From: a phage
Assembly (NCBI GenBank): GCA_024614665.1
Contig: GCA_024614665.1_4861.1
Length of the DNA stretch: 64,000 nt
Reading direction: 5' to 3' (one strand)
This document shows, one piece after another, positions 8,331-44,491 of this stretch (positions are counted from its first letter, which is position 1; each line of letters opens with the position of its first letter). The position numbers were made by a program, and so were the translations under genes. The notes under the pieces were generated by a model. It was not told the origin of the DNA. It did no database searches and saw nothing but the letters and a program-made list of their open reading frames with translations.

Positions 8331-10109
8331 TTAGCGGCCGATTTTAGCAATGTCTTCTTCGGTCGGTCTGATGTACGGGTCCAGTTTAGGATTCCGCATC
8401 ATTACCAAACTTGGGTTGGTCTTCATGTACGGGTTGAGGATGTTTGCCTTAAACGGTGCCGACTTAGGAATATAGTAGACGTTACCGCATTCCAGATGCG
8501 ACGCGGATGCGTGCTTAGTACGGTCGTTCAAGTTAACGGTCTTGCCTCCTTTCTTCGAACGCTTAGCATCGGTTTCGGTTTGACCGATGGCGTGCGTAGA
8601 CACTGCCAATACCATTGATTCTGTAGAGGCATTGAAGAAACTGATACCGCCGTTGCTCGTAATGGTGCGCATCACCAGATTGAGCACGATCTGTTTGTTC
8701 AGTGCGTCTCGAATAGACTTCGCCGCTGTCTCTGGAGTCCGATGTTCCAACTGCCCCAGCTTCCAACGTATTTTCGAGATCGTTGTGGTAAAGCCACGTT
8801 GACCCAACAGTAGGTAATCGGTTACCGTGAGACGTTTTCCGTACATAGACGGAATATCATCTTGCTTGGTAAGTCGAGTGCGTACCATCAGCTGCGTGGT
8901 ATACCAGAGGAAATCAAACATATCCAAATCATCAGGGATGGACGGATCGTTTGCCATCAGCTCACCACGGAAGGTGCTGTTGACATAGCGTTCACATTCC
9001 TGGAAGTGGCTGTCCATACTGCGACTCAGTTCGATATCCGAAGGCTTCAGTCCGCGAATACTGCGGCCCAACACTTCACGCCAAGACGCTGCAGAGTTGA
9101 GGTTTGCAATATCTTCGTCCATTGCCATTTCATTAATCTGTGTAAACAGCCCCGGTAGTGTTGGTGCACGACCGTTCTTACTGTTCTGTTTACCTGCGTA
9201 GTAGTGCGCTGCTTTGAAGAACGCAGCAGTCGCTACCAGCAACAGATGTTCGTTTTGATCCCAACGCCCTGCATCGGTGTTAGGCATATCTTCACGTTTA
9301 ACCAACAATACGTACTGGATGGTCTTCGCGAGTTGTGGCTCACCAGATTGAATCACCACATACTTCGTTAAGTCCACATCACGCACTTTAATCGCTGGCC
9401 AAATCGCCACATCAACGCCCGCATAACGCTTCACGGCTTGTTTAAAGCCATAACGCCCAAAGAGCCAATACATCAGTGGCTTCTCATCTGTGTCGTGTCC
9501 AATCTGTCCAGTGGAGACAAACAGATTCGATGTACCCGGCAAGAACAGCTGCTCAGGGCGACCATTCACCAGAATCTTCGTTGGTTTCTTACAGAACTTG
9601 ATAGACACCTTGCGAGTGAAGTCAAAGTTAATAAAGATACCGCCGTGCTCACGACATATACCAGGTTGATGGATTACAGGTGCTACGTGGTACGTTGTAC
9701 CATAGTAGTTCATTAAGCCGCCACGACGAATAAACGGCAGGCTCATTGGTCGTTGCACCGGGCGAGGATCACCTGGAACTCGGAACGAGGCCATTACCAT
9801 ATACGTGTCAGTGGATGAGATGTTAATAATTGACCGGCCACGATTATTTCGTGAATTGTTATCCGACTTCGATAACTTAAAGATAAAAGCTTCAAACGGC
9901 GACATTTGGCGACAACCTAATACCGTTAACCCTTCTGGTAATTTCGGGTTATCGATTTCATCATACGTCAACTCACGACGTAGAATGGTTGCCACACGAT
10001 CATGTATCCCATCTTTAGCTTGTGTGTACCCAACTCCTTCTGCAATTGCACGATTAAAAGGCACTATTTCGCCTGCCTCTTTAATCTTCCTAATCGCATC
10101 TTTAAACAC
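8331..10109 (-). CDS. hypothetical protein (592 aa)
   Basis: Long uninterrupted ORF on the dominant coding strand. Confidence 0.6.
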   Translation of the reverse strand: MFKDAIRKIKEAGEIVPFNRAIAEGVGYTQAKDGIHDRVATILRRELTYDEIDNPKLPEGLTVLGCRQMSPFEAFIFKLSKSDNNSRNNRGRSIINISSTDTYMVMASFRVPGDPRPVQRPMSLPFIRRGGLMNYYGTTYHVAPVIHQPGICREHGGIFINFDFTRKVSIKFCKKPTKILVNGRPEQLFLPGTSNLFVSTGQIGHDTDEKPLMYWLFGRYGFKQAVKRYAGVDVAIWPAIKVRDVDLTKYVVIQSGEPQLAKTIQYVLLVKREDMPNTDAGRWDQNEHLLLVATAAFFKAAHYYAGKQNSKNGRAPTLPGLFTQINEMAMDEDIANLNSAASWREVLGRSIRGLKPSDIELSRSMDSHFQECERYVNSTFRGELMANDPSIPDDLDMFDFLWYTTQLMVRTRLTKQDDIPSMYGKRLTVTDYLLLGQRGFTTTISKIRWKLGQLEHRTPETAAKSIRDALNKQIVLNLVMRTITSNGGISFFNASTESMVLAVSTHAIGQTETDAKRSKKGGKTVNLNDRTKHASASHLECGNVYYIPKSAPFKANILNPYMKTNPSLVMMRNPKLDPYIRPTEEDIAKIGR

Positions 10110-11230: not shown

Positions 11231-11929
11231 TTAGGGTATTAGGCGTTGGGCTATTTCGCGGAGTTGGTCGCGGGTTAAATCAGCCAACTTCTGGTCGCCG
11301 AAGCCCAACTTCAGACCCAGCTCGTACCCAGCTTGCGGATACGTGTTCGTGTTTGCTACTGAGAGGAGTGCATCGGCTATCTTTACCATCGTTAACTCGA
11401 GAGACGCATACGGGGCGGGGATCGGCTGATTCACGATTTGGTAATTATAACGCACTGCGGCGTTATCGTAGTCAAACTCCATCCTTCTGCCGAGAACGTT
11501 AAACGACTCCGCAGAATAACTACCAAATGGGTGATTGGCTTTTTCCCACAAATCTTTCCGTTCAGTAAACCCAGTCGCGAAGTTCTGACGTATGGTGTCG
11601 AATATTTGCGTTGCCTGGCTAGGGTGTATATTTTTCAGCTCATTGTAGTCGTAGTCGGCGATGGAATATAGAGTGAACACAACACCGTTTATATTTAACT
11701 GCGGATAATCCATCCGCAGACTGTCATCACCTTGTAAATGAAGTTCCCACATCCTTACCCACTGCAATATCGCGCTTACCGCATCGTGACTGAGATAAAA
11801 ATTAGTAGGTTCTTCAGGATTTTCACGGAAGGGAACAGAGCATTCCGATACAAAAAAGCCGGCTGCCATAAATCCTCTGCCGTCGAACATAGGCGCAACT
11901 AATCTTGATTTTTCTAAATTGATTACCAT
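11231..11929 (-). CDS. hypothetical protein (232 aa)
   Basis: ORF track; ATG 11929; promoter-like element 41 nt upstream. Confidence 0.55.
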   Translation of the reverse strand: MVINLEKSRLVAPMFDGRGFMAAGFFVSECSVPFRENPEEPTNFYLSHDAVSAILQWVRMWELHLQGDDSLRMDYPQLNINGVVFTLYSIADYDYNELKNIHPSQATQIFDTIRQNFATGFTERKDLWEKANHPFGSYSAESFNVLGRRMEFDYDNAAVRYNYQIVNQPIPAPYASLELTMVKIADALLSVANTNTYPQAGYELGLKLGFGDQKLADLTRDQLREIAQRLIP

Positions 11930-11969
11930 TACTGTCTCCTTAAGTTAAAACCGAACGACTCTCTCCCTA

Positions 11970-11984
11970 AGATAATATCTATCT
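11970..11984 (-). promoter_or_regulatory. promoter-like 15-bp element, type A
   Basis: Exact copy AGATAATATCTATCT immediately downstream (minus sense) of a terminator and 41 nt upstream of ATG 11929. Confidence 0.5.
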
Positions 11985-11988
11985 ATAA

Positions 11989-12033
11989 ATTTTTAGAAAA
12001 AAAGAAAAAGCTTACTCCCCGAAGGGAGTAAGC
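11989..12033 (-). terminator. intrinsic terminator (minus strand)
   Basis: Stem cttactccc/gggagtaag, then plus-strand A-tract = U-tract after hairpin in minus transcript; follows stop of gene 12065..14365. Confidence 0.6.
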
Positions 12034-12064
12034 TAATCTTAGGCAACGTAATCCTTACGGATTA

Positions 12065-14365
12065 TTAGCCGCCAGCGCCTTCACCGCCAGTACCTGGCTG
12101 GGTAGCACCGCCGCCAACATCACCAGCATTACCACCGTCAGTACCGCCGGTGCCGTTGGAAGTAGTAGTGACGTTGAACGCCAGTTTCTCTTCCACGAAC
12201 TTGGTGATACCTTTAATCCAGATCAGACCAGTGATCGGGCAGTGGCAGATGTGCGCGTTACGAGGCTGTACTGCCAGCTCTTTGCTGGTAGCGCCGTTAC
12301 GCTGGATGTTGATGTTGGTTACCATGATCGGAGACCAGAAGTGGTTACCCCAGTTCAGAACACAGTAAGAACCATCATCAGCGGTTGGAACTTTCAGAAC
12401 CCACTGCAGGCGGCGAGTCCAGCTGCCGTCAGCTTCGTTCTTCACACGCCAGCGGTCATCGTTGGTGGTGATAACTTCGTACTCGTAGCGATCGCCCAGC
12501 AGACGCTGGTCGCCCTGAACCAGCAGCAGCATTGCAGCAGTCGGTTCGTCAGTTGCGATAACAACTTTCGGCAGTGCGTTCGGGTCCGCAGTCAGCAGGC
12601 GCAGAGCCGGCATGAAGCGAGAGTCCTGGATAGCACGAGTTACCTGGTCACCGATACGCTGTACCAGACCCTGACGGGCGTTGATGAGCGCATCTTTGGT
12701 ATCCAGAGACTGGATCACTTTGTCCACTTCGTAGTCGCTTTCGCTGTACCACGGAGCAACCCAGTGACGGCCCAGGCCGCGGATAGCAGGTTTGTCCCAC
12801 GGAGTGATCATGGACGCAGCTGCGTTCTTAACCGCTTCGGTGTAAGACAGAGTCTGAGTGATAGCCAGCATTTCGTTACGGATGTTAACCGCAGAAACGA
12901 GGTCGTCCAGACGTTCGGTGTCGTCGTATTCAACGCCAACCGGAGATTTGGTCATGATCGGAGAACCGTACTGCAGTTTGTAGTTCTCTTGTTCCCAAAT
13001 CGGGTCGAGCAGAAGGCCCTGGGTTCTCCGGTTCTCGTTGGTACGAGTACCGTCGAAGCGCCAGCCCAGCAGCTCCAGTTTCAGGTTGTCGATGATGACT
13101 TTGCCGGTGCCGCTTTCGATATCAACAGCAGTACCAGTTGCATCGTACAGACCTTCGATTTCCAGAGACGGTGCAGTCACGTCAACACGACCAGAGAACT
13201 GACCGTTGGTGAACAGAGACATGCTGATGTTCATGGAATAACGAATGGTGTAATCGTTCTGTGCCAGAGCGGCCAGTGCCGGGATTTCAGCACCTTTCCA
13301 GTCCAGAGACTTGGCGTTCAGGGAGAACACAGTGCGACGGAACTGCAGGACCAGCTCACGACCATCACCTTCAGGAGGACGCTGGAAGGTAGCGAACTGC
13401 ATGTCGCGTACGTTCAGTTTGATCAGCGCACCATCTTTCGCTTCTTCGCTCGGCTTACGCACAGACAGCAGCAGGCTACCCAGCGCTGCACCCGGTGCGA
13501 TTTCGTCGGTTTCATCGTAACCTTCCTGCACGATACCCGGATGGGCAGACAGCTGGAACAGGTTCAGACGACGCTCAGAGAAGCTCAGGTAGTTGGTCGG
13601 ATACGCCGGCACACGACCCAGCTGAACGTTTTCGTTTTCGATGATGTCTTCGGATACGAAGAACTTCGCGTTCTCACCGGTTTCCATCACGTAAGGTACG
13701 ATACGGATAGCATCGTCCTGCAGGACTTTGTGGTTAGACAGCGCGTTATGCAGCGGCTGACGGTTGTCTTCAACCACGTCTTTGGTCAGCAGGGCGTTCA
13801 GGATACCACGAGTTACAGTAGTAACTTTGGTACGAACGGTGATGCCGACGTCGTTGGTGTCCACAGTGATGGTCGGGAACAGGGTTTCTGCAAACTTGGA
13901 TTGAGTTTCCAGAGCACGCACGTTCAGCGTCCAGGTCAGACCCAGGTTTTTGTCCAGGTCTTTGTTGGTGTAGTATTCGGTTGCGACCAGCGGAGTTTTA
14001 CCGTAGTCAGCAGCCAGGGATGCTGCACCAGAAATAGCGATCGGCATATAGCTGGCGTATTCCGGCTTCGCGCTCTCAGCAGCAACACGGGTCATGAAGT
14101 CATCTTCGTGACCGGCAGCAGCCAGAATCATCGCAGAAGCAACCTGAGCAGCGTGGCTCATGGTTTTGCCAGGGTTTACAGCTTCGTAGTGCTGCTGAGC
14201 AGTGTCACGCAGGTTGGTGAAGCCGGCAGCATTTTTACGTACAGATTCGCCAACGGCTACGGTTTGCCATACGTCATTAGCGGAAGAGCCTGCCTTGGCA
14301 GCAGCGACCAGAGCATTGCCCTGCTGAACCAGCTGGTCCAGACTAGCGATACGGGTATCTTTCAT
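12065..14365 (-). CDS. candidate major virion structural protein (possibly major capsid protein), 766 aa
   Basis: Strongly biased codon usage typical of a very highly expressed gene, flanked by terminator; size in the range I recall for phiKZ-type major capsid proteins; no motif-level proof. Confidence 0.35.
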   Translation of the reverse strand: MKDTRIASLDQLVQQGNALVAAAKAGSSANDVWQTVAVGESVRKNAAGFTNLRDTAQQHYEAVNPGKTMSHAAQVASAMILAAAGHEDDFMTRVAAESAKPEYASYMPIAISGAASLAADYGKTPLVATEYYTNKDLDKNLGLTWTLNVRALETQSKFAETLFPTITVDTNDVGITVRTKVTTVTRGILNALLTKDVVEDNRQPLHNALSNHKVLQDDAIRIVPYVMETGENAKFFVSEDIIENENVQLGRVPAYPTNYLSFSERRLNLFQLSAHPGIVQEGYDETDEIAPGAALGSLLLSVRKPSEEAKDGALIKLNVRDMQFATFQRPPEGDGRELVLQFRRTVFSLNAKSLDWKGAEIPALAALAQNDYTIRYSMNISMSLFTNGQFSGRVDVTAPSLEIEGLYDATGTAVDIESGTGKVIIDNLKLELLGWRFDGTRTNENRRTQGLLLDPIWEQENYKLQYGSPIMTKSPVGVEYDDTERLDDLVSAVNIRNEMLAITQTLSYTEAVKNAAASMITPWDKPAIRGLGRHWVAPWYSESDYEVDKVIQSLDTKDALINARQGLVQRIGDQVTRAIQDSRFMPALRLLTADPNALPKVVIATDEPTAAMLLLVQGDQRLLGDRYEYEVITTNDDRWRVKNEADGSWTRRLQWVLKVPTADDGSYCVLNWGNHFWSPIMVTNINIQRNGATSKELAVQPRNAHICHCPITGLIWIKGITKFVEEKLAFNVTTTSNGTGGTDGGNAGDVGGGATQPGTGGEGAGG

Positions 14366-14916: not shown

Positions 14917-16479
14917 ATGAATAGTAAAATGATGTTGATAACCGCCTTAGCCGCACTGTATACAGAATCTATGCTGACGGACCCTAGCAAGGATCATGAT
15001 GTCATAAGAAAAGTTCTGATGCAGATCAAGCTTCCGGAATATGCGGAAGATGGCGAAGAGCGCTTTGCACTCATCGAGATCAAGGACATTATCACATCTA
15101 TCATAGACGGCGGCATGGAATACGACCACGCGAGCGTTATGAAGCGCTTGAAGCTGGCCACCACTCAAGTACGTCCTCTATACGATACGATTACCAAATT
15201 CCTCGAAGACGATTTGCCCGAGGAAGAAGACAAACGTACCGAGCATCTTAATCGACAACTGTCTCAATATTATTTCCAATTACGTCAATGTTTACAGAGC
15301 GTCGAACTCAAAACAAAAATGGGTCGCGCGTTCGGAGCATTGAATGGAACTGAGACACGTGTTGATCTGAACACCGCAGTGCTCGAACTCAAAGAGGCGC
15401 TATCTACGTTCGGTGAACGCTCTCATAATAAGATTCCATCACTGGTCGGTGAGCTGGTTACAGATAATCGGGCTCCGTTTGTTAAAGTGTTCGACTCGAT
15501 TAACAAGAAAGCAGCAGGTAATGGTTTGCAGACGGGCTGGAAAGCCATTAACCAAATGCTCGGTTGTAACAAAGGGATTACCGAAGAACTGTGGCTAATG
15601 CCGGCGTTACCTTTTAACTGTAAGTCTTTGTTCAGTCTCTTGCTGAGCTTATCGATTCCTATCTTCAACACGCCTGAGAAAGTAATGGCGGATGTGAAGG
15701 GCACACTGCAACCAATTATTCTTGACTTGAGTTTAGAAAACGAACTCGACGTTAACTTAGCTTACGGCTATCAAGCTCTGTACGGTCATTTTGAAGGACA
15801 AGTTCCACAGATGACCATTTCACAGGATGCAACCGCTGAAGAGAAGTTAGCACACACAACAGCAATGTCTGATTACCTCTGTGGTAAGATTCGCGCAAAC
15901 GGTTGGGACTACGTTTTCCAAAAGCACACCAACTCCGATTTTAAAGTGCACTACATCAACGACCTTATTCTCGACTTACGTCGTCGCGGTTATCATGTTG
16001 TTGGCATTCGCGCAGACTACTTAGGCACAATCAGCAAAGCAGGACACGGCAACGGTATTGCCGGGAGTGATATCAAAGAAATTTATCGTATTGCTCGTAA
16101 CATTCAAGTGGTGCGCAACCGTGGGTTCTTAATTGCCCCACACCAGATTTCCCCAGAAGGTAAGCGCTTAAAAGCGTTAGACCCGGTAGGTTTCTGTAAG
16201 AACTTACCTGGTCGTGGTCTTTACGATAGTTGTTCGAGCCTTGATAACGAGGCCGATGGTGAAATGTATTTTAACAAGCGTGTGGTCAACGGCCATAGCT
16301 TCTTAGAAGTTCAACGCGGTAAGCACCGCACCATTATCGATACTAAAGAATCTTATCACTACACAGTGATACCTTTCCAGGATGTTGGCATCCTGCCTTG
16401 GGATTGTGATAAAGAAGAAACCGTAACAGCGTCGTCTATCAACTTCTTCACCGGTGGAATGGGTGATGATTTGTTCTAA
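14917..16479 (+). CDS. hypothetical protein (520 aa)
   Basis: Long ORF with AAGGA RBS; minus strand over the same span has only short ORFs. Confidence 0.6.
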   Translation: MNSKMMLITALAALYTESMLTDPSKDHDVIRKVLMQIKLPEYAEDGEERFALIEIKDIITSIIDGGMEYDHASVMKRLKLATTQVRPLYDTITKFLEDDLPEEEDKRTEHLNRQLSQYYFQLRQCLQSVELKTKMGRAFGALNGTETRVDLNTAVLELKEALSTFGERSHNKIPSLVGELVTDNRAPFVKVFDSINKKAAGNGLQTGWKAINQMLGCNKGITEELWLMPALPFNCKSLFSLLLSLSIPIFNTPEKVMADVKGTLQPIILDLSLENELDVNLAYGYQALYGHFEGQVPQMTISQDATAEEKLAHTTAMSDYLCGKIRANGWDYVFQKHTNSDFKVHYINDLILDLRRRGYHVVGIRADYLGTISKAGHGNGIAGSDIKEIYRIARNIQVVRNRGFLIAPHQISPEGKRLKALDPVGFCKNLPGRGLYDSCSSLDNEADGEMYFNKRVVNGHSFLEVQRGKHRTIIDTKESYHYTVIPFQDVGILPWDCDKEETVTASSINFFTGGMGDDLF

Positions 16480-39421: not shown

Positions 39422-40774
39422 TTAGGAAGAAGTCGCCTGACTAAGCTTCGCAGAAGCCACACGCAGGTCATTAGAAAGATAGCGCTCCATCGTACGCTGA
39501 TAATCCACCCCAGCACGCTCACGGCGACCGCCAGGGGTCAGCGTTTTCATGATGAAGCTAAAGACGTTGTCTTTGTCTTTCACGGTTTTCAGTAGTTCGT
39601 CGATAGACGCAATGCCCTGCAGAATACGTTTACGATGTTCGTTCGCTTCTTTCGTGGTGCTGCCTTTTAAGGTGTTCAGCTCCTCCACTAAGTTACGGCG
39701 CATCGTCTCAAAACGTTCCTGCGGCGGATCGTAGATGGTGTTGCGTGGGTCGTTCACAATCAGGCCGAACGCGACTGAGATAGTCGTGAAGAACAGACCA
39801 ACTGGATTAGTCGAAGCCACAATCAGCAGCGAAACGTTAAGCATCTCCAGCATCAGATGTACACCGTAGTTCATGTACGACGCGTTCCGGCAGAGATAGA
39901 ATTGGGACGTTTCGATTTTGTACAAGGCTGACGCCAGGTACGGGGCTGCACCAAAGCGAGCTGCGAAGTCATCTGCAGCACGTTCCCAGGTACGGTTAGC
40001 GAACCCTTCCGAACCGGTAACAAACGGACGCTCAAGCAGAATGTCTGTCACCAGATGCATGTAGATGTTCTCTTTAGACATCTCTTTGCAGATAGTTTCC
40101 GGCTGATTCACTTTGGTGTTCAGCATACGTTCAACGTCTTTTACGACTTTTAAACGCACTGTCGGGTCTTCTGTTTGCATCATGCGGTTCGCTGCAGCAT
40201 CCGCAATCAGGTTCGTTACCACCGTACGCATCAAGGTACGGAAATAGTAATAGACGTGACCGACTTCATGTAGAATAATCGCCGCGACTTCTAAATCCGT
40301 TAACTCGATACCTGTCAGTAGTTTCGGGGTCAGCCAAAGTGGGGACGGCACCTTGCTGAGTTCGCCTGAAAGCTTCGCATTTTTATCGTCGAACTCGCCG
40401 TTCAGCTCGTTCTCTTTTAAGAACTTACTGTAGACATCCAGGTCGGTGTTACCCTGCACCATCTTGCGTTGCAGGTCGGCGATGATTGGGTTGTTCGCGT
40501 CGAGCTTCGGTGGCTCCACACCCGCAAACACAACGTCCGCCACACCTAAGTCGGACCCGTTACGAGGCAGGACTGTAATACCGTTGTTGTCAAAGACCCA
40601 GGCAGCAATACCAGAACTCTGATAACCCGCTGGCGAGAAGTCGCCCGCATCACGGAACTTACGTACCACTTCCGCCAAAGAGGCGAGTTTCTTTTTATCT
40701 TGGAATCCGATGGACTCCGAGGCCACGGCTTTCGCGTCGGCCAACGAGGTTATGTGCTTTTGCCAGTGTCCCAT
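39422..40774 (-). CDS. putative zinc metallopeptidase (HExxH, M48-like)
   Basis: HEVGH motif (AIILHEVGHVYYYF) followed downstream by TWERAADDFAARFG resembling the M48-family E-x-x-A-D third-ligand motif; hydrophobic segment after it. Confidence 0.45.
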   Translation of the reverse strand: MGHWQKHITSLADAKAVASESIGFQDKKKLASLAEVVRKFRDAGDFSPAGYQSSGIAAWVFDNNGITVLPRNGSDLGVADVVFAGVEPPKLDANNPIIADLQRKMVQGNTDLDVYSKFLKENELNGEFDDKNAKLSGELSKVPSPLWLTPKLLTGIELTDLEVAAIILHEVGHVYYYFRTLMRTVVTNLIADAAANRMMQTEDPTVRLKVVKDVERMLNTKVNQPETICKEMSKENIYMHLVTDILLERPFVTGSEGFANRTWERAADDFAARFGAAPYLASALYKIETSQFYLCRNASYMNYGVHLMLEMLNVSLLIVASTNPVGLFFTTISVAFGLIVNDPRNTIYDPPQERFETMRRNLVEELNTLKGSTTKEANEHRKRILQGIASIDELLKTVKDKDNVFSFIMKTLTPGGRRERAGVDYQRTMERYLSNDLRVASAKLSQATSS

Positions 40775-40844
40775 TTAGACGTTCCTTTTAGAAAATACGT
40801 TACCCACAAATCAGTATAGCAGACACCATATTTGAGAGTAGACC

Positions 40845-42629
40845 ATGGAAATCAATACCTATTACGCACCCGAGGATGTCATCGCTAAAGAGTGCAAGCA
40901 CGTCGCTTATGCGACGGACGAAGAAAAAGAAAATGACTTTGTCCTCATCAAAGAGGTCATCCATACTAAGGATGGCAGGCTTATCCCGCGCTTGGTAATG
41001 CGTGAGAATTTAAAGCGTCCGGTGTACGTTACCCGTGAAGAATATCGTAACCACCAGGAGAAAAAGGAGTTCGAAGAAAAAGGAAAATGTCAAGAACTCT
41101 GGACTACTGATGCGCAGATGGCGAAGACGTTGCAGATGGGTTTAGGTGCACGTTTCCCTGACCCGAAAAAGAACCTGAGGCGTGTTTGTACTAGCCCGTA
41201 CGTTTATTGGGCCGACTTACCGATTACCAGCTGGATTAAACAGAAATACTTAAAGCGTTGGCCAAACAACATCAGTCCTAACCGTCTTTGTGTATACGAC
41301 GTAGAGACCAACGAAATGGACGGCACGAAGGAACCGTGGATCGTGTCATTTATCTTAGACGACGAAATCCATTTCTTTGGTGCTAAGAACTACATGGACC
41401 GCATCGGTAAAAACGCGGAAGAAGTCATTCTCAAAAAAGCGCAGGAACTCTTAAGCAAAATCGAATTCGATGAGAAAGACAAAAAGACTGGCGAAAAGGT
41501 GACAAAGACCAAAGACATTATCAGTGGTTATAAAATCTTCACCTATACCTGCGCTACAGCAGGGCAGTGCATCGTCAGGATGTTCGAAGAAATTCATCCG
41601 CGTCTTCCTGATTTGCTGGTCGCATGGAACCACCAGTTCGATATTTCACGCATGTTAGAAACCTTGCAGAAAGAAGGCATCGATCCACTGGGCGTCTTTA
41701 ACCATCCGGATGTGCCGGAGAAATACCGTCGTCTGTGGTTTAAAGAAGACCAGGCGAACAAAAAGACAGAATCCAAGTCACTCACCAAAGCACCGTCACA
41801 ACAGTGGCACGTACTCTACTGTACTGCGTCTTTCTACTGTGTGGATGCCATGGTGTTATTCCGTTCGTTGCGTGTCCACGAAGGCCAACGTCCTTCGTAC
41901 AAGTTATCTGCCATACTGTACACCGAACTCGGTTTACACAAACTCGACATTCCTGGCCTGCCGTATGAAGATAACCTGCAATGGCACATAAAAGCACAAC
42001 GGGACTACCCTGCCGAATACGCCGTATACAACATGATGGATAACTTGTTAATTGTGTTGTTGGATAAGAAGACGAACGACTTGTCTTCAGCAATATCCAT
42101 TCTGGCAGGTTTCTCGATGTACGATATCTTCCCGTCGCTACCAAAACGTATCTGTGTGGCCTTTACCTATTATCTGTATGACAAAGGATACGTCATCGGC
42201 TCCGTAGGATCTGCAATGCGTAACGATTACGATGAAGAGGTTATCGGTACAGACGGTTGGATTGTTACCCTGACAGCATGTATGAATGCTGAGAACGGTC
42301 TGAATAACATTCTGGAGGAGATTGACGAATATTACTCTGCGTTCCGTGGTCAAACTGCGGATGCGGACTTAACCCAGGCCTACCCTTCGGCCACAAACAT
42401 GATGAACCAGTCTCGTGAGACCACACTCATTGAACTGCTGTCCATCAATGGGGTTAGTGAAGAGATTCGACGTCGCACGGGCGTCAACTTAACTGCTGGG
42501 CGAGTTAATGCCATGGAAATAGCGACAGACTTCTTCTGCTTACCGGACAAAGACACTGTCCTGTCTACGTTCTTACGTAAGCAAGGGGAAGTAGTGACAG
42601 AGCCTATGGAGTACATCTGCGGGTTCTAA
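40845..42629 (+). CDS. DEDD-type 3'-5' exonuclease domain protein (possible DNA polymerase fragment), 594 aa
   Basis: Exo I-like CVYDVETNEMDG, Exo II-like AWNHQFDISRML, Exo III-like YNMMD in correct order; no clear polymerase motifs seen. Confidence 0.4.
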   Translation: MEINTYYAPEDVIAKECKHVAYATDEEKENDFVLIKEVIHTKDGRLIPRLVMRENLKRPVYVTREEYRNHQEKKEFEEKGKCQELWTTDAQMAKTLQMGLGARFPDPKKNLRRVCTSPYVYWADLPITSWIKQKYLKRWPNNISPNRLCVYDVETNEMDGTKEPWIVSFILDDEIHFFGAKNYMDRIGKNAEEVILKKAQELLSKIEFDEKDKKTGEKVTKTKDIISGYKIFTYTCATAGQCIVRMFEEIHPRLPDLLVAWNHQFDISRMLETLQKEGIDPLGVFNHPDVPEKYRRLWFKEDQANKKTESKSLTKAPSQQWHVLYCTASFYCVDAMVLFRSLRVHEGQRPSYKLSAILYTELGLHKLDIPGLPYEDNLQWHIKAQRDYPAEYAVYNMMDNLLIVLLDKKTNDLSSAISILAGFSMYDIFPSLPKRICVAFTYYLYDKGYVIGSVGSAMRNDYDEEVIGTDGWIVTLTACMNAENGLNNILEEIDEYYSAFRGQTADADLTQAYPSATNMMNQSRETTLIELLSINGVSEEIRRRTGVNLTAGRVNAMEIATDFFCLPDKDTVLSTFLRKQGEVVTEPMEYICGF

Positions 42630-42680
42630 AACAAAAAAAGAAAGGCCTCTCTACCCTAGGGTAGAGAGGTACTTTTATTT
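42629..42680. terminator. bidirectional intrinsic terminator
   Basis: A-tract, stem cctctctaccc/ggtagagagg, T-tract tacttttattt; between convergent genes. Confidence 0.65.
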
Positions 42681-43179
42681 AGCCGCCAAAGGCGTGCATA
42701 ACCAGCGAACGGAGGTCCGGGTCGTTCAAGCGACGGGCCAGACGGTCAACATCGTTGGTATCACGGAAACGACCTTTATCGGCGCAGCGTGCGTAACGAA
42801 TCAGCATGTTAATAAAGATAACGAAGACTTCACGCTCGTCACGATTCGGGAAGTTCTCACTGATACGGTTATTAGCAGCCGGTGCGTAGAAAATACCGTT
42901 ACGGTGCTTATTAGCCGCTTCTACAAAGGCGTAGAAACCATCCAGGAAGGCCTGACCGCGCAGTTTAAACAGCTCACGGAAAGAGTGATGCAGCTTATTA
43001 TACGCATCTTTCTCAGCCTGGGTACCAGATGCTTTACGTGGGCCGGCGTTGTTACCTGCTTCATCGAGCATCGTGGTGATCAGTTTAACACGATATTGGT
43101 CGTCGTTGCTGTAAGAAGCGCTATCACGGACCACGCCTTCTGTACGCGGGTCAAGGGTAGTAGTGTCTTTCTTAGTCAT
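42679..43179 (-). CDS. hypothetical protein (about 166 aa)
   Basis: Track ORF 42679..43254; in-frame ATG 43179 preceded by AAGGA. Confidence 0.45.
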   Translation of the reverse strand: MTKKDTTTLDPRTEGVVRDSASYSNDDQYRVKLITTMLDEAGNNAGPRKASGTQAEKDAYNKLHHSFRELFKLRGQAFLDGFYAFVEAANKHRNGIFYAPAANNRISENFPNRDEREVFVIFINMLIRYARCADKGRFRDTNDVDRLARRLNDPDLRSLVMHAFGG

Positions 43180-43192
43180 GAGGAAACAATCC

Positions 43193-44491
43193 TTAGGTGA
43201 TGTGGAATTTAGGGATGTACTCTTTAACCACGGTTTCACGACCGTGCATCGCACCCATTGCAGTGGTCATAACGTTCGAGAAGCCGGATGAGATATCCGC
43301 AGCGATTGCCCGTGGCTCTTCTGCTTTGTGTGCAGAGGCGCACGCCGCACAACAGTCTACGTGACCTTGCTGACATAAGATGGGTCGGCGGAGTCGAACA
43401 ACTTTACCGAATTGCGTTTTCAAATACTCTTCGGTGAGTTGGGTAACTTTACCGTTAATCATCGCGTTCATGCCAACATAACGCTTGTAGTTATACTGGT
43501 TAATTACAAGTGCATGAGTCAGTTTTGTCCCGCAATCTCCAGGCACGATTTTGTGGTTCTGGAAGATCATCTGGATGATACGTACCTGCTCACCACCCTT
43601 AGCGGTTTCTGCACCACGCATGAAGGAACCTTCACGAGTGTCATTGAACTTCTCTACCAGGTACTTCATCCCGGTCTGATCAACTTCCATCAGACTCGTT
43701 GGGATTAAGGTAAAATCTGCACCTTCTTTAAAAGCGGTCTGAATACCATACATCAGCATCAGCTTACGGCGACGCATACGCGCTTTAGGCGAGCTGTAGA
43801 ACTCAACGGACTGGTCGCCACTCAACCACTCTTTATCAAGTTCGTCGAGAGCTTTTTCAATCATAACGATAACCGCAGGGTTATCCAGTTCGTCTTTGTG
43901 CTTCAACAGCAACGCATCACGTACCTTATACGCGTCAGGATGCGTTGTAAGGCTTCTAATTGTTCCTGTTGGGGCAATCCCACGACACAACGGAGCAAGC
44001 TCGTGTAGACCCCCTACAAAGCGTCCTATCATGTATGGCCGAATCGCGTCTTCGTTGTCTGGATCGGTGTCATCGTATTCCACACATCGTTCGTACATCT
44101 CCTTACGGTAGGCTAGCGGGTCACGGGACTCTGCCAGATACGGGAGACGGGTACCGAATGCGTAATAGATAGCAATCCAGTTAAAGACATAGCGACCCAC
44201 GGTAGTCGGAATGGGACCAGCTAGACCTGGGTACATCTCAGGACGCAATTCAAACTGCTCTTCCGGCACGAACAGCTCTTCATCTTTTTTGCACCCTTCA
44301 ATCGGCACCCATTTAATTTCTTCGTTTTCCCAGTAGTGGGGCAAGCCGTCAATGTAGTTCAGGTCGTATTGCTCAGGTGGCTCACCTTTTTCATTAAAGA
44401 TTGCCACGTTGAAAACCGCAATACGCCACACCAGTCTACGCCAAGCTTCTGCTTTACACGCAGCGACCAGATAATCAATCTTGTTCATCAT
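43193..44491 (-). CDS. hypothetical protein (432 aa) with C-terminal cysteine cluster
   Basis: ORF track; tandem ATGs with GGAGGTAG RBS; C-terminal CQQGHVDCCAACASAH. Confidence 0.55.
   Translation of the reverse strand: MMNKIDYLVAACKAEAWRRLVWRIAVFNVAIFNEKGEPPEQYDLNYIDGLPHYWENEEIKWVPIEGCKKDEELFVPEEQFELRPEMYPGLAGPIPTTVGRYVFNWIAIYYAFGTRLPYLAESRDPLAYRKEMYERCVEYDDTDPDNEDAIRPYMIGRFVGGLHELAPLCRGIAPTGTIRSLTTHPDAYKVRDALLLKHKDELDNPAVIVMIEKALDELDKEWLSGDQSVEFYSSPKARMRRRKLMLMYGIQTAFKEGADFTLIPTSLMEVDQTGMKYLVEKFNDTREGSFMRGAETAKGGEQVRIIQMIFQNHKIVPGDCGTKLTHALVINQYNYKRYVGMNAMINGKVTQLTEEYLKTQFGKVVRLRRPILCQQGHVDCCAACASAHKAEEPRAIAADISSGFSNVMTTAMGAMHGRETVVKEYIPKFHIT

Follow-up and report, generated by a model that had tools for sequence, protein, structure and literature searches.

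The subject of this analysis is a gene on the plus strand, at positions 40,845 to 42,629, of a stretch of 64,000 nucleotides of phage DNA (GenBank assembly GCA_024614665.1, contig GCA_024614665.1_4861.1), the whole of which is called the window here. By megablast, the region 40000-43500 shows 99.2% nucleotide identity to the Salmonella phage SPN3US (JN641803 / NC_027402.1) in reverse orientation, and the window corresponds approximately to 19.9-83.9 kb of the SPN3US record (NC_027402.1). The encoded protein of 594 amino acids has 100% amino acid identity to SPN3US gp44 (YP_009153338.1), with zero residue differences, and is referred to as gp44 in what follows. Its RefSeq product name is 'DNA polymerase', and it matches phrog_3011 'DNA polymerase' over its full length (E=4e-251). 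An earlier note, made from the sequence alone, had described the open reading frame exactly as it is found, and had counted it among only six plus-strand genes, which is also the number of plus-strand coding sequences in the corresponding SPN3US RefSeq interval. We think that the gene encodes the N-terminal subunit (DNAP-N) of a family-B DNA polymerase (PolB) that is split over two polypeptides. The features along the gene are the following:

40845..42629, plus strand: coding sequence of DNAP-N (SPN3US gp44), 594 amino acids plus stop, ATG start; from the open reading frame list, phrog_3011 and the RefSeq annotation

40845..42209, plus strand: PolB N-terminal domain plus 3'-5' exonuclease domain, residues 1-455; predicted local distance difference test (pLDDT) above 90 in the AlphaFold2 (AF2) model, and Foldseek

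41292..41315, plus strand: Exo I, VYDVETNE, residues 150-157, with D152/E154; invariant, aligned to RB69 and PhiKZ gp82

41625..41654, plus strand: Exo II, WNHQFDISRM, residues 261-270, with N262/D266; near-invariant, aligned to RB69 WNVESFDIPYV

42018..42050, plus strand: Exo III, YAVYNMMDNLL, residues 392-402, with Y395/D399; invariant, aligned to RB69 YISYNIIDVYR

42294..42425, plus strand: first palm segment, residues 484-527, consisting of the pre-motif-A strand plus motif A; aligns to RB69 388-431

42447..42626, plus strand: C-terminal helical segment, residues 535-594, contribution to the palm insertion; aligns to PhiKZ gp82 589-638

The exonuclease part of the protein is the most readily recognized. 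In the family alignment of gp44, which comprises 62 members with 22-76% identity to the query, D152, E154, Y395 and D399 are present in 62/62 sequences, and N262 and D266 in 61/62 each. Exo I (consensus DxE), Exo II (Nx2-3[F/Y]D) and Exo III (Yx3D) occur in canonical order, and D152/E154, the Exo II block and Y395/D399 align, respectively, to D114/E116, D222 and Y323/D327 of RB69 gp43. A search of the PDB with the gp44 profile found RB69 gp43 (E=5.4e-9), the match consisting of three collinear blocks, one each for Exo I/II, Exo III and motif A, while hhalign against a small T4-type PolB alignment of four sequences placed gp44 20-575 on RB69 3-516 with a probability of 98.9% and E=2.6e-17. Judged on these profiles, the alignment of the exonuclease motifs to RB69 gp43 is far beyond chance, and the position of Y395 makes the predicted exonuclease one of the DEDDy type. 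The earlier note was therefore right about the three motifs and their order, whereas it had put them in the N-terminal half of the protein; they span residues 150-402, approximately the first two thirds.

The fold points to the same family. All AF2 models considered here are of isolated single chains, and when the model of gp44 was compared with the PDB by Foldseek the top 50 matches were all family-B polymerases (probability 1.00), the best being RB69 gp43 (E=2.9e-12, ~470 columns), with T4 gp43, Pol epsilon and archaeal PolB also found. Since the motifs align to RB69 and the top Foldseek matches are all PolB, the exonuclease of gp44 is of the PolB type, accompanied by a PolB N-terminal domain, and is not of the RNase D/T or family-A type; in Pfam, neither RNase_T nor DNA_pol_A_exo1 matched gp44. 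By orthology with PhiKZ, this exonuclease would be catalytically active in the SPN3US-type phage.

Beyond the exonuclease, gp44 also carries a piece of the polymerase palm. The pre-motif-A strand reads NGLxxIxExP and is the counterpart of RB69 GAFVKEP. It is followed by motif A, ADADLTQAYPSATNMMNQSRETT (residues 505-527, window 42357-42425), with the core D506-x-D508-LTQAYPS, which aligns to RB69 404-431 as the third collinear block in HMMER and also in hhalign. Residues 508-515, D508-LTQAYPS, correspond to the family-B consensus DxxSLYPS. D508 aligns to the catalytic D411 of RB69 (D411-LTSLYPS) and Y513 to RB69 Y416, so that D508 is the predicted catalytic aspartate and Y513 holds the putative steric-gate tyrosine position. 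Conservation of D506, D508, Y513, P514 and N521 is complete in the 61/61 ungapped sequences, on par with that of the exonuclease residues. The statement of the earlier note that no clear palm motifs could be seen has thus to be withdrawn for motif A. An extra invariant aspartate, D506, stands two residues before the catalytic position (residues 505-508, window 42357-42368); PhiKZ has D560-x-D562 there, and RB69 has Ser-Phe-Asp at the positions of D506-x-D508.

The rest of gp44 is a C-terminal tail, of which residues 535-584 align to the palm insertion of PhiKZ gp82 (589-638). In the AF2 model this segment is helical and its pLDDT in the single chain is low to moderate, and the whole of residues 460-594, including the palm segment, has low pLDDT in the monomer, in comparison with values above 90 for residues 1-455. 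Such low confidence fits a segment that would fold only against a partner. Motif B (KxxxNSxYG), motif C (DTD), the KxY motif and the thumb are absent from the 594 amino acids of gp44. They lie in a second protein, gp18, and gp44 is for this reason a subunit and not a complete PolB:

11544-13823 of the SPN3US record NC_027402.1, strand opposite to gp44: gp18 (DNAP-C), 759 amino acids, 'DNA polymerase'; Pfam PF20286

The gp18 gene is located 27.4 kb from gp44, just outside the window, and tblastn of the window with gp18 and with PhiKZ gp50 gave no match to the partner. It is the polymerase-domain reading frame devoid of an exonuclease that the earlier note had proposed looking for elsewhere in the genome. 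The assignment of gp18 as the partner is made because of its Pfam family, its motifs, its fold and its match to PhiKZ gp50. It belongs to PF20286, 'Divergent Family B DNA polymerase' (divDNApol), with E=5e-284. Invariant in 60 gp18 homologs are K157/N160/N161/S164/G165 of motif B (K157xxNNxxSG), S418-D-T-D-S422 of motif C (D419-T-D421), and K497/Y499 of the KxY motif (K497-x-Y499). In yeast Pol zeta, the gp18 profile matches residues 1019-1098, which begin directly after motif A and extend through motif B, and the AF2 model (pLDDT 87) matches RB69/T4 gp43 in Foldseek over ~500 columns; hhalign of the gp18 family against the four-sequence T4-type alignment is weak (probability 14-29%).

Read across the pair, gp44 carries Exo I-III and motif A, and gp18 continues with motifs B, C and KxY in that order. 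The split falls between RB69 positions ~431 and ~455, where gp44 is extended by ~65 residues at its C-terminus and gp18 by ~95 at its N-terminus. In seven cases, homologs of gp44 and of gp18 have the same longest-contig sizes (239534, 190185, 111454, 60784, 59664, 209130 and 55797), which suggests that they co-occur on the same contigs.

The closest characterized relative is the split family-B polymerase of the chimalliviruses as studied in PhiKZ, in which gp82 (DNAP-N) interdigitates with gp50 (DNAP-C) in a stable 1:1 complex, the structure of which was determined at 2.14 Å by cryogenic electron microscopy (PMC13648687; Basu et al., bioRxiv, 1 October 2026). According to that work, the PhiKZ split lies within a large palm insertion, the polymerase site takes its motif A residue, D562, from DNAP-N and its motif C residue, D426, from DNAP-C, and the exonuclease site consists of D151/E153/D251/D452 of gp82 (PMC13648687). 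The D562A substitution in gp82 abolishes polymerase activity, whereas D151A/E153A eliminates primer degradation (PMC13648687). The sequences of the two phages correspond well: in blastp, gp44 aligns with gp82 with E-values of 5e-53 and 1e-39 (32-37% identity), and gp18 aligns with gp50 with E=5e-149. Moreover, gp82 D151/E153/D251/D452/D562 map to identical residues in gp44, D152/E154/D266/D399/D508, and gp50 D426 maps to the identical D421 of gp18. The two N subunits also share the domain order (N-terminal domain, exonuclease, motif-A palm segment, palm-insertion tail) and a gene neighbourhood with a virion RNA polymerase beta-subunit gene and virion structural genes nearby.

Some differences between the two phages should be mentioned. 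The 'little finger' insert of gp82 (residues 350-415), which is restricted to a subset of Pseudomonas-infecting phages (PMC13648687), is missing from gp44, where the alignment has a gap, and gp82 has 638 amino acids in comparison with 594 for gp44. In PhiKZ the two subunits are encoded ~35 kb from each other on one strand, and in SPN3US 27 kb from each other on opposite strands. Structure and biochemistry are known for the PhiKZ enzyme, while the SPN3US proteins are known here from their sequences. A third PhiKZ protein, Rhc (gp155), composed of an RNase H and a clamp-like domain, boosts synthesis (PMC13648687); tblastn of the window and of record positions 1-36000 gave no significant match to an Rhc ortholog, and the SPN3US Rhc may be encoded in another part of the genome, or BLAST may be unable to find it because of its divergence.

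Our interpretation is based on five observations: that the protein is identical to gp44, which domains it contains, how its motifs are conserved, where the split is placed, and how its residues correspond to those of gp82 and gp50. We give a probability of about 0.93 to the gene being the DNAP-N of the two-polypeptide family-B replicative polymerase of an SPN3US-type (Seoulvirus, PhiKZ-related) jumbo phage. In this enzyme, four parts would come from gp44: the N-terminal domain of PolB, a proofreading 3'-5' exonuclease of the DEDDy type (D152, E154, D266, Y395 and D399), the first palm segment with motif A (D508, Y513), and a helical C-terminal tail (~535-594). From gp18 would come the thumb, the fingers with motif B, and the remaining palm with motif C and K497-x-Y499. 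A non-covalent 1:1 heterodimer of these chains is expected, with a composite polymerase active site that takes the motif A aspartate from DNAP-N and the motif C aspartates from DNAP-C. The split itself would be placed inside a lineage-specific helical palm-insertion domain, made up of the DNAP-N tail, DNAP-C ~1-94 and DNAP-C ~203-414. As gp44 holds motif A, the polymerase active site would be unable to form without it, and since that site would be composite, neither gene alone should encode a functional polymerase. Complex formation and activity in the SPN3US-type phage are predicted from orthology with PhiKZ.

Several points weigh against this interpretation. The complex, its activity and the composite site are presumed here by carrying them over from PhiKZ orthologs at 32-37% identity, and the PhiKZ source is a preprint in its version 1 (PMC13648687). 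Taken alone, motif A is a weak HMMER block, with an i-E-value of ~130; its assignment is made because of the collinearity, the hhalign result and the conservation, and not because of that block alone. Finally, previous work on phage EL assigned the two catalytic aspartates to the polymerase subunit, with EL D229 as the motif A aspartate (PMC3201878). That the counterpart of EL D229 is the invariant GD288xYHLAKYN of gp18 is an unverified guess on our part. The invariant gp18 block FVYxGD288xYHLAKYN296 comes after motif B, inside the helical palm insertion of the AF2 model, and resembles motif A superficially.

Other explanations for gp44 have to be weighed. The protein might be an independent 3'-5' exonuclease, similar to DnaQ, RNase D or RNase T or proofreading in trans as Pol III epsilon does, and be loosely or not at all tied to a complete polymerase encoded elsewhere. 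The presence of conserved DEDDy motifs would suit such an enzyme, and so would the failure of Pfam and NCBIfam to match it, but the fold is that of a PolB N-terminal domain plus exonuclease over ~470 columns, and no RNase D/T or DnaQ appears in the top 50 of Foldseek. This explanation does not account for the conserved motif A, with its alignment to RB69 D411-LTSLYPS, nor for the fact that gp18 begins to align to PolB only past motif A. In PhiKZ, furthermore, gp82 D562, which equals D508 of gp44, is catalytic for the polymerase while residing on the N subunit of the interdigitated 1:1 complex. In our opinion an independent exonuclease is very improbable, and this explanation is already largely refuted.

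If the two genes do encode one polymerase, their products could be joined post-translationally by a split intein, giving a mature single chain by trans-splicing. There are precedents in the PolB of Nanoarchaeum, in the intein-containing split PolB of phage MIJ3 and in the intein of Aes508 gp43B. Nevertheless, neither gp44 nor gp18 has a Pfam intein or Hint match, their genes, on opposite strands, are separated by 27 kb in which there is no homing endonuclease, and the gp44 C-terminus and gp18 N-terminus align to PhiKZ segments that were resolved as separate chains, namely palm-insertion helices; we consider that the chance of splicing is close to nil. An equally negligible chance is left for gp44 being a decaying, functionless polymerase fragment. 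By its domain content it is indeed a partial polymerase, but more than 700 clusters, built at 50% identity, keep a full-length reading frame like that of gp44, in which the length stays the same and the catalytic residues do not vary. Further, gp44 is equipped with a start and a terminator-like hairpin of its own, and the PhiKZ ortholog is an active subunit. The conservation pattern has already refuted the pseudogene. The non-covalent two-subunit polymerase is thus the explanation that we retain.

A further idea concerns the palm-insertion domain of this polymerase, which might be more than a structural clasp and have a further functional site, one in which primers are made or handed over, for instance, or in which the exchange of the proofreading subunit is regulated. 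The domain carries residues, among them Y285, D288 and N296 of gp18 and D506 of gp44, that are invariant in the family and without a counterpart in RB69. To our knowledge, phages of the SPN3US/PhiKZ type have no recognisable primase. A 'primpol' has been suggested for them (PMC7824862). We regard a second site as a long shot.

Comparison with other polymerases helps in placing the split. RB69/T4 gp43 has a similar N-terminal domain, DEDDy exonuclease and motif A in both profile and fold, and gp44 and gp18 together hold all of the canonical motifs in its order: Exo I-III, A, B, C and KxY. The RB69/T4 enzyme is, however, a single chain instead of two polypeptides, RB69 has no large helical insertion at the point of the SPN3US split, and the extra aspartate of D506-x-D508 in gp44 is not present in RB69. 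In addition, no ring clamp of the T4/RB69 gp45 type is known for the SPN3US/PhiKZ type, and PhiKZ uses the RNase H-clamp protein Rhc.

In the T4-related Aeromonas phage Aes508, PolB is also split between motifs A and B, into gp43A and gp43B, and its N chain likewise contains the exonuclease and motif A. The locus is NC_019543.1 19948-25277, and gp43A has 498 amino acids, ending at about RB69 residue 512. This split, in contrast to that of SPN3US, is in the finger tip (approximately RB69 residue 512) and not in the palm, and the Aes508 genes are adjacent with a homing-endonuclease gene between them, gp43B bearing a group I intron and an intein. The Aes508 split marks a recent insertion of mobile elements, whereas that of SPN3US/PhiKZ is ancient, family-wide and with distant gene locations, and the two are evidently independent events. 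Proofreading and most of the polymerase are also on different polypeptides in Pol III alpha/epsilon. Nonetheless, epsilon is a self-contained DnaQ exonuclease that gives nothing to the polymerase active site, while gp44 would supply the catalytic motif A residue and part of the palm.

The existence of a split polymerase in these phages is not new. In PhiKZ-like phages, PolB genes of a divergent kind were described in 2011 by Kazlauskas and Venclovas, who placed the exonuclease on another reading frame (PMC3201878), and gp18 and gp44 of SPN3US were described in 2017 as a split-subunit family-B DNA polymerase (PMC5694885). A survey of 2021 took the exonuclease to be, probably, a stand-alone associate (PMC7824862). 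The gene is ordinary replication machinery in this phage family, and only its domain content needs a small correction. It has little weight as a discovery, being annotated in RefSeq, with the SPN3US split published in 2017, that of the phage family in 2011-2012, and the structure and biochemistry of the PhiKZ ortholog available.

Of the two options that the earlier note had left side by side, the proofreading part of a split polymerase agrees with gp44/gp18 (PMC5694885) and with the PhiKZ complex (PMC13648687), and the independent exonuclease does not hold. Its heading of a stand-alone DEDD exonuclease-domain protein was too narrow, as gp44 also has the PolB N-terminal domain, the motif-A palm segment and the palm-insertion tail. 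A fitting name would be 'DNA polymerase subunit N (N-terminal domain, exonuclease and motif A palm segment)' and not 'exonuclease'. We think that this is relevant for annotation pipelines, there being no Pfam or NCBIfam model for DNAP-N, and for the engineering or knock-down of SPN3US-type replication.

Searches of gp44 with Pfam, NCBIfam and, as a single sequence, against the PDB gave no match, and the only informative ones were PHROGs, the family profiles and the fold search. The architecture as a separate chain is stable in the family: with a cut-off of E<=1e-30, an exhaustive search with the family profile gave 745 representatives of clusters, and among the best 150 of them almost every one is 550-620 amino acids long. 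No fused DNAP-N/DNAP-C relative, a 'Rosetta stone', was proved among the best 150 matches. The sole long match among them, P0215 (894 amino acids), is not a fusion: its C-terminal extension of ~330 residues is unrelated to DNAP-C (hhalign probability 0.4%). In several records of SPFM Salmonella phages (proteins P0039-P0042, P0050, P0052 and P0053, and P0186 and P0213), versions of both subunits have high HMMER scores but cover 3-11% of the query in BLAST. It looks like the gene calls for the SPFM polymerase subunits are frameshifted or contain errors in those assemblies.

Regarding the surroundings of the gene, a scan for sigma-70 promoters upstream of gp44 found none. SPN3US-type phages transcribe with their own RNA polymerases, and the lack of a sigma-70 promoter is expected for that reason. 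Downstream, one further feature was found by a scan and a consensus match, between the convergent gp44 (plus strand) and SPN3US gp43 (minus strand):

42645..42670, both strands: bidirectional intrinsic-terminator-like hairpin with an 11-bp stem, an A-run before it and a T-run after it

Also downstream of gp44, the open reading frame at 42679-43254 on the minus strand has 191 amino acids when started from GTG, while the RefSeq coding sequence (record 40674-41174) has 166. Its match to phrog_7825, of unknown function, begins at residue 26 of the 191, and the shorter start of the 166-amino-acid version is favoured because of it.

Another gene of the window could be taken for a piece of DNA polymerase by its name. 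The open reading frame at 8331-10109 on the minus strand (592 amino acids) is called 'polymerase' in RefSeq and phrog_2943, and was rejected as such a piece since it matches PHIKZ123 (PDB 7OGP chain E, E=3e-20); a Pfam search of this frame gave no match. By its sequence it is an ortholog of PHIKZ123, one of the subunits that form the non-virion RNA polymerase of PhiKZ. A second replisome component does exist in the window: the gene at 14917-16479, another of the six on the plus strand, encodes a divergent DnaB-like replicative helicase (PF20307 divDNAB, E=1e-124; phrog_3213).

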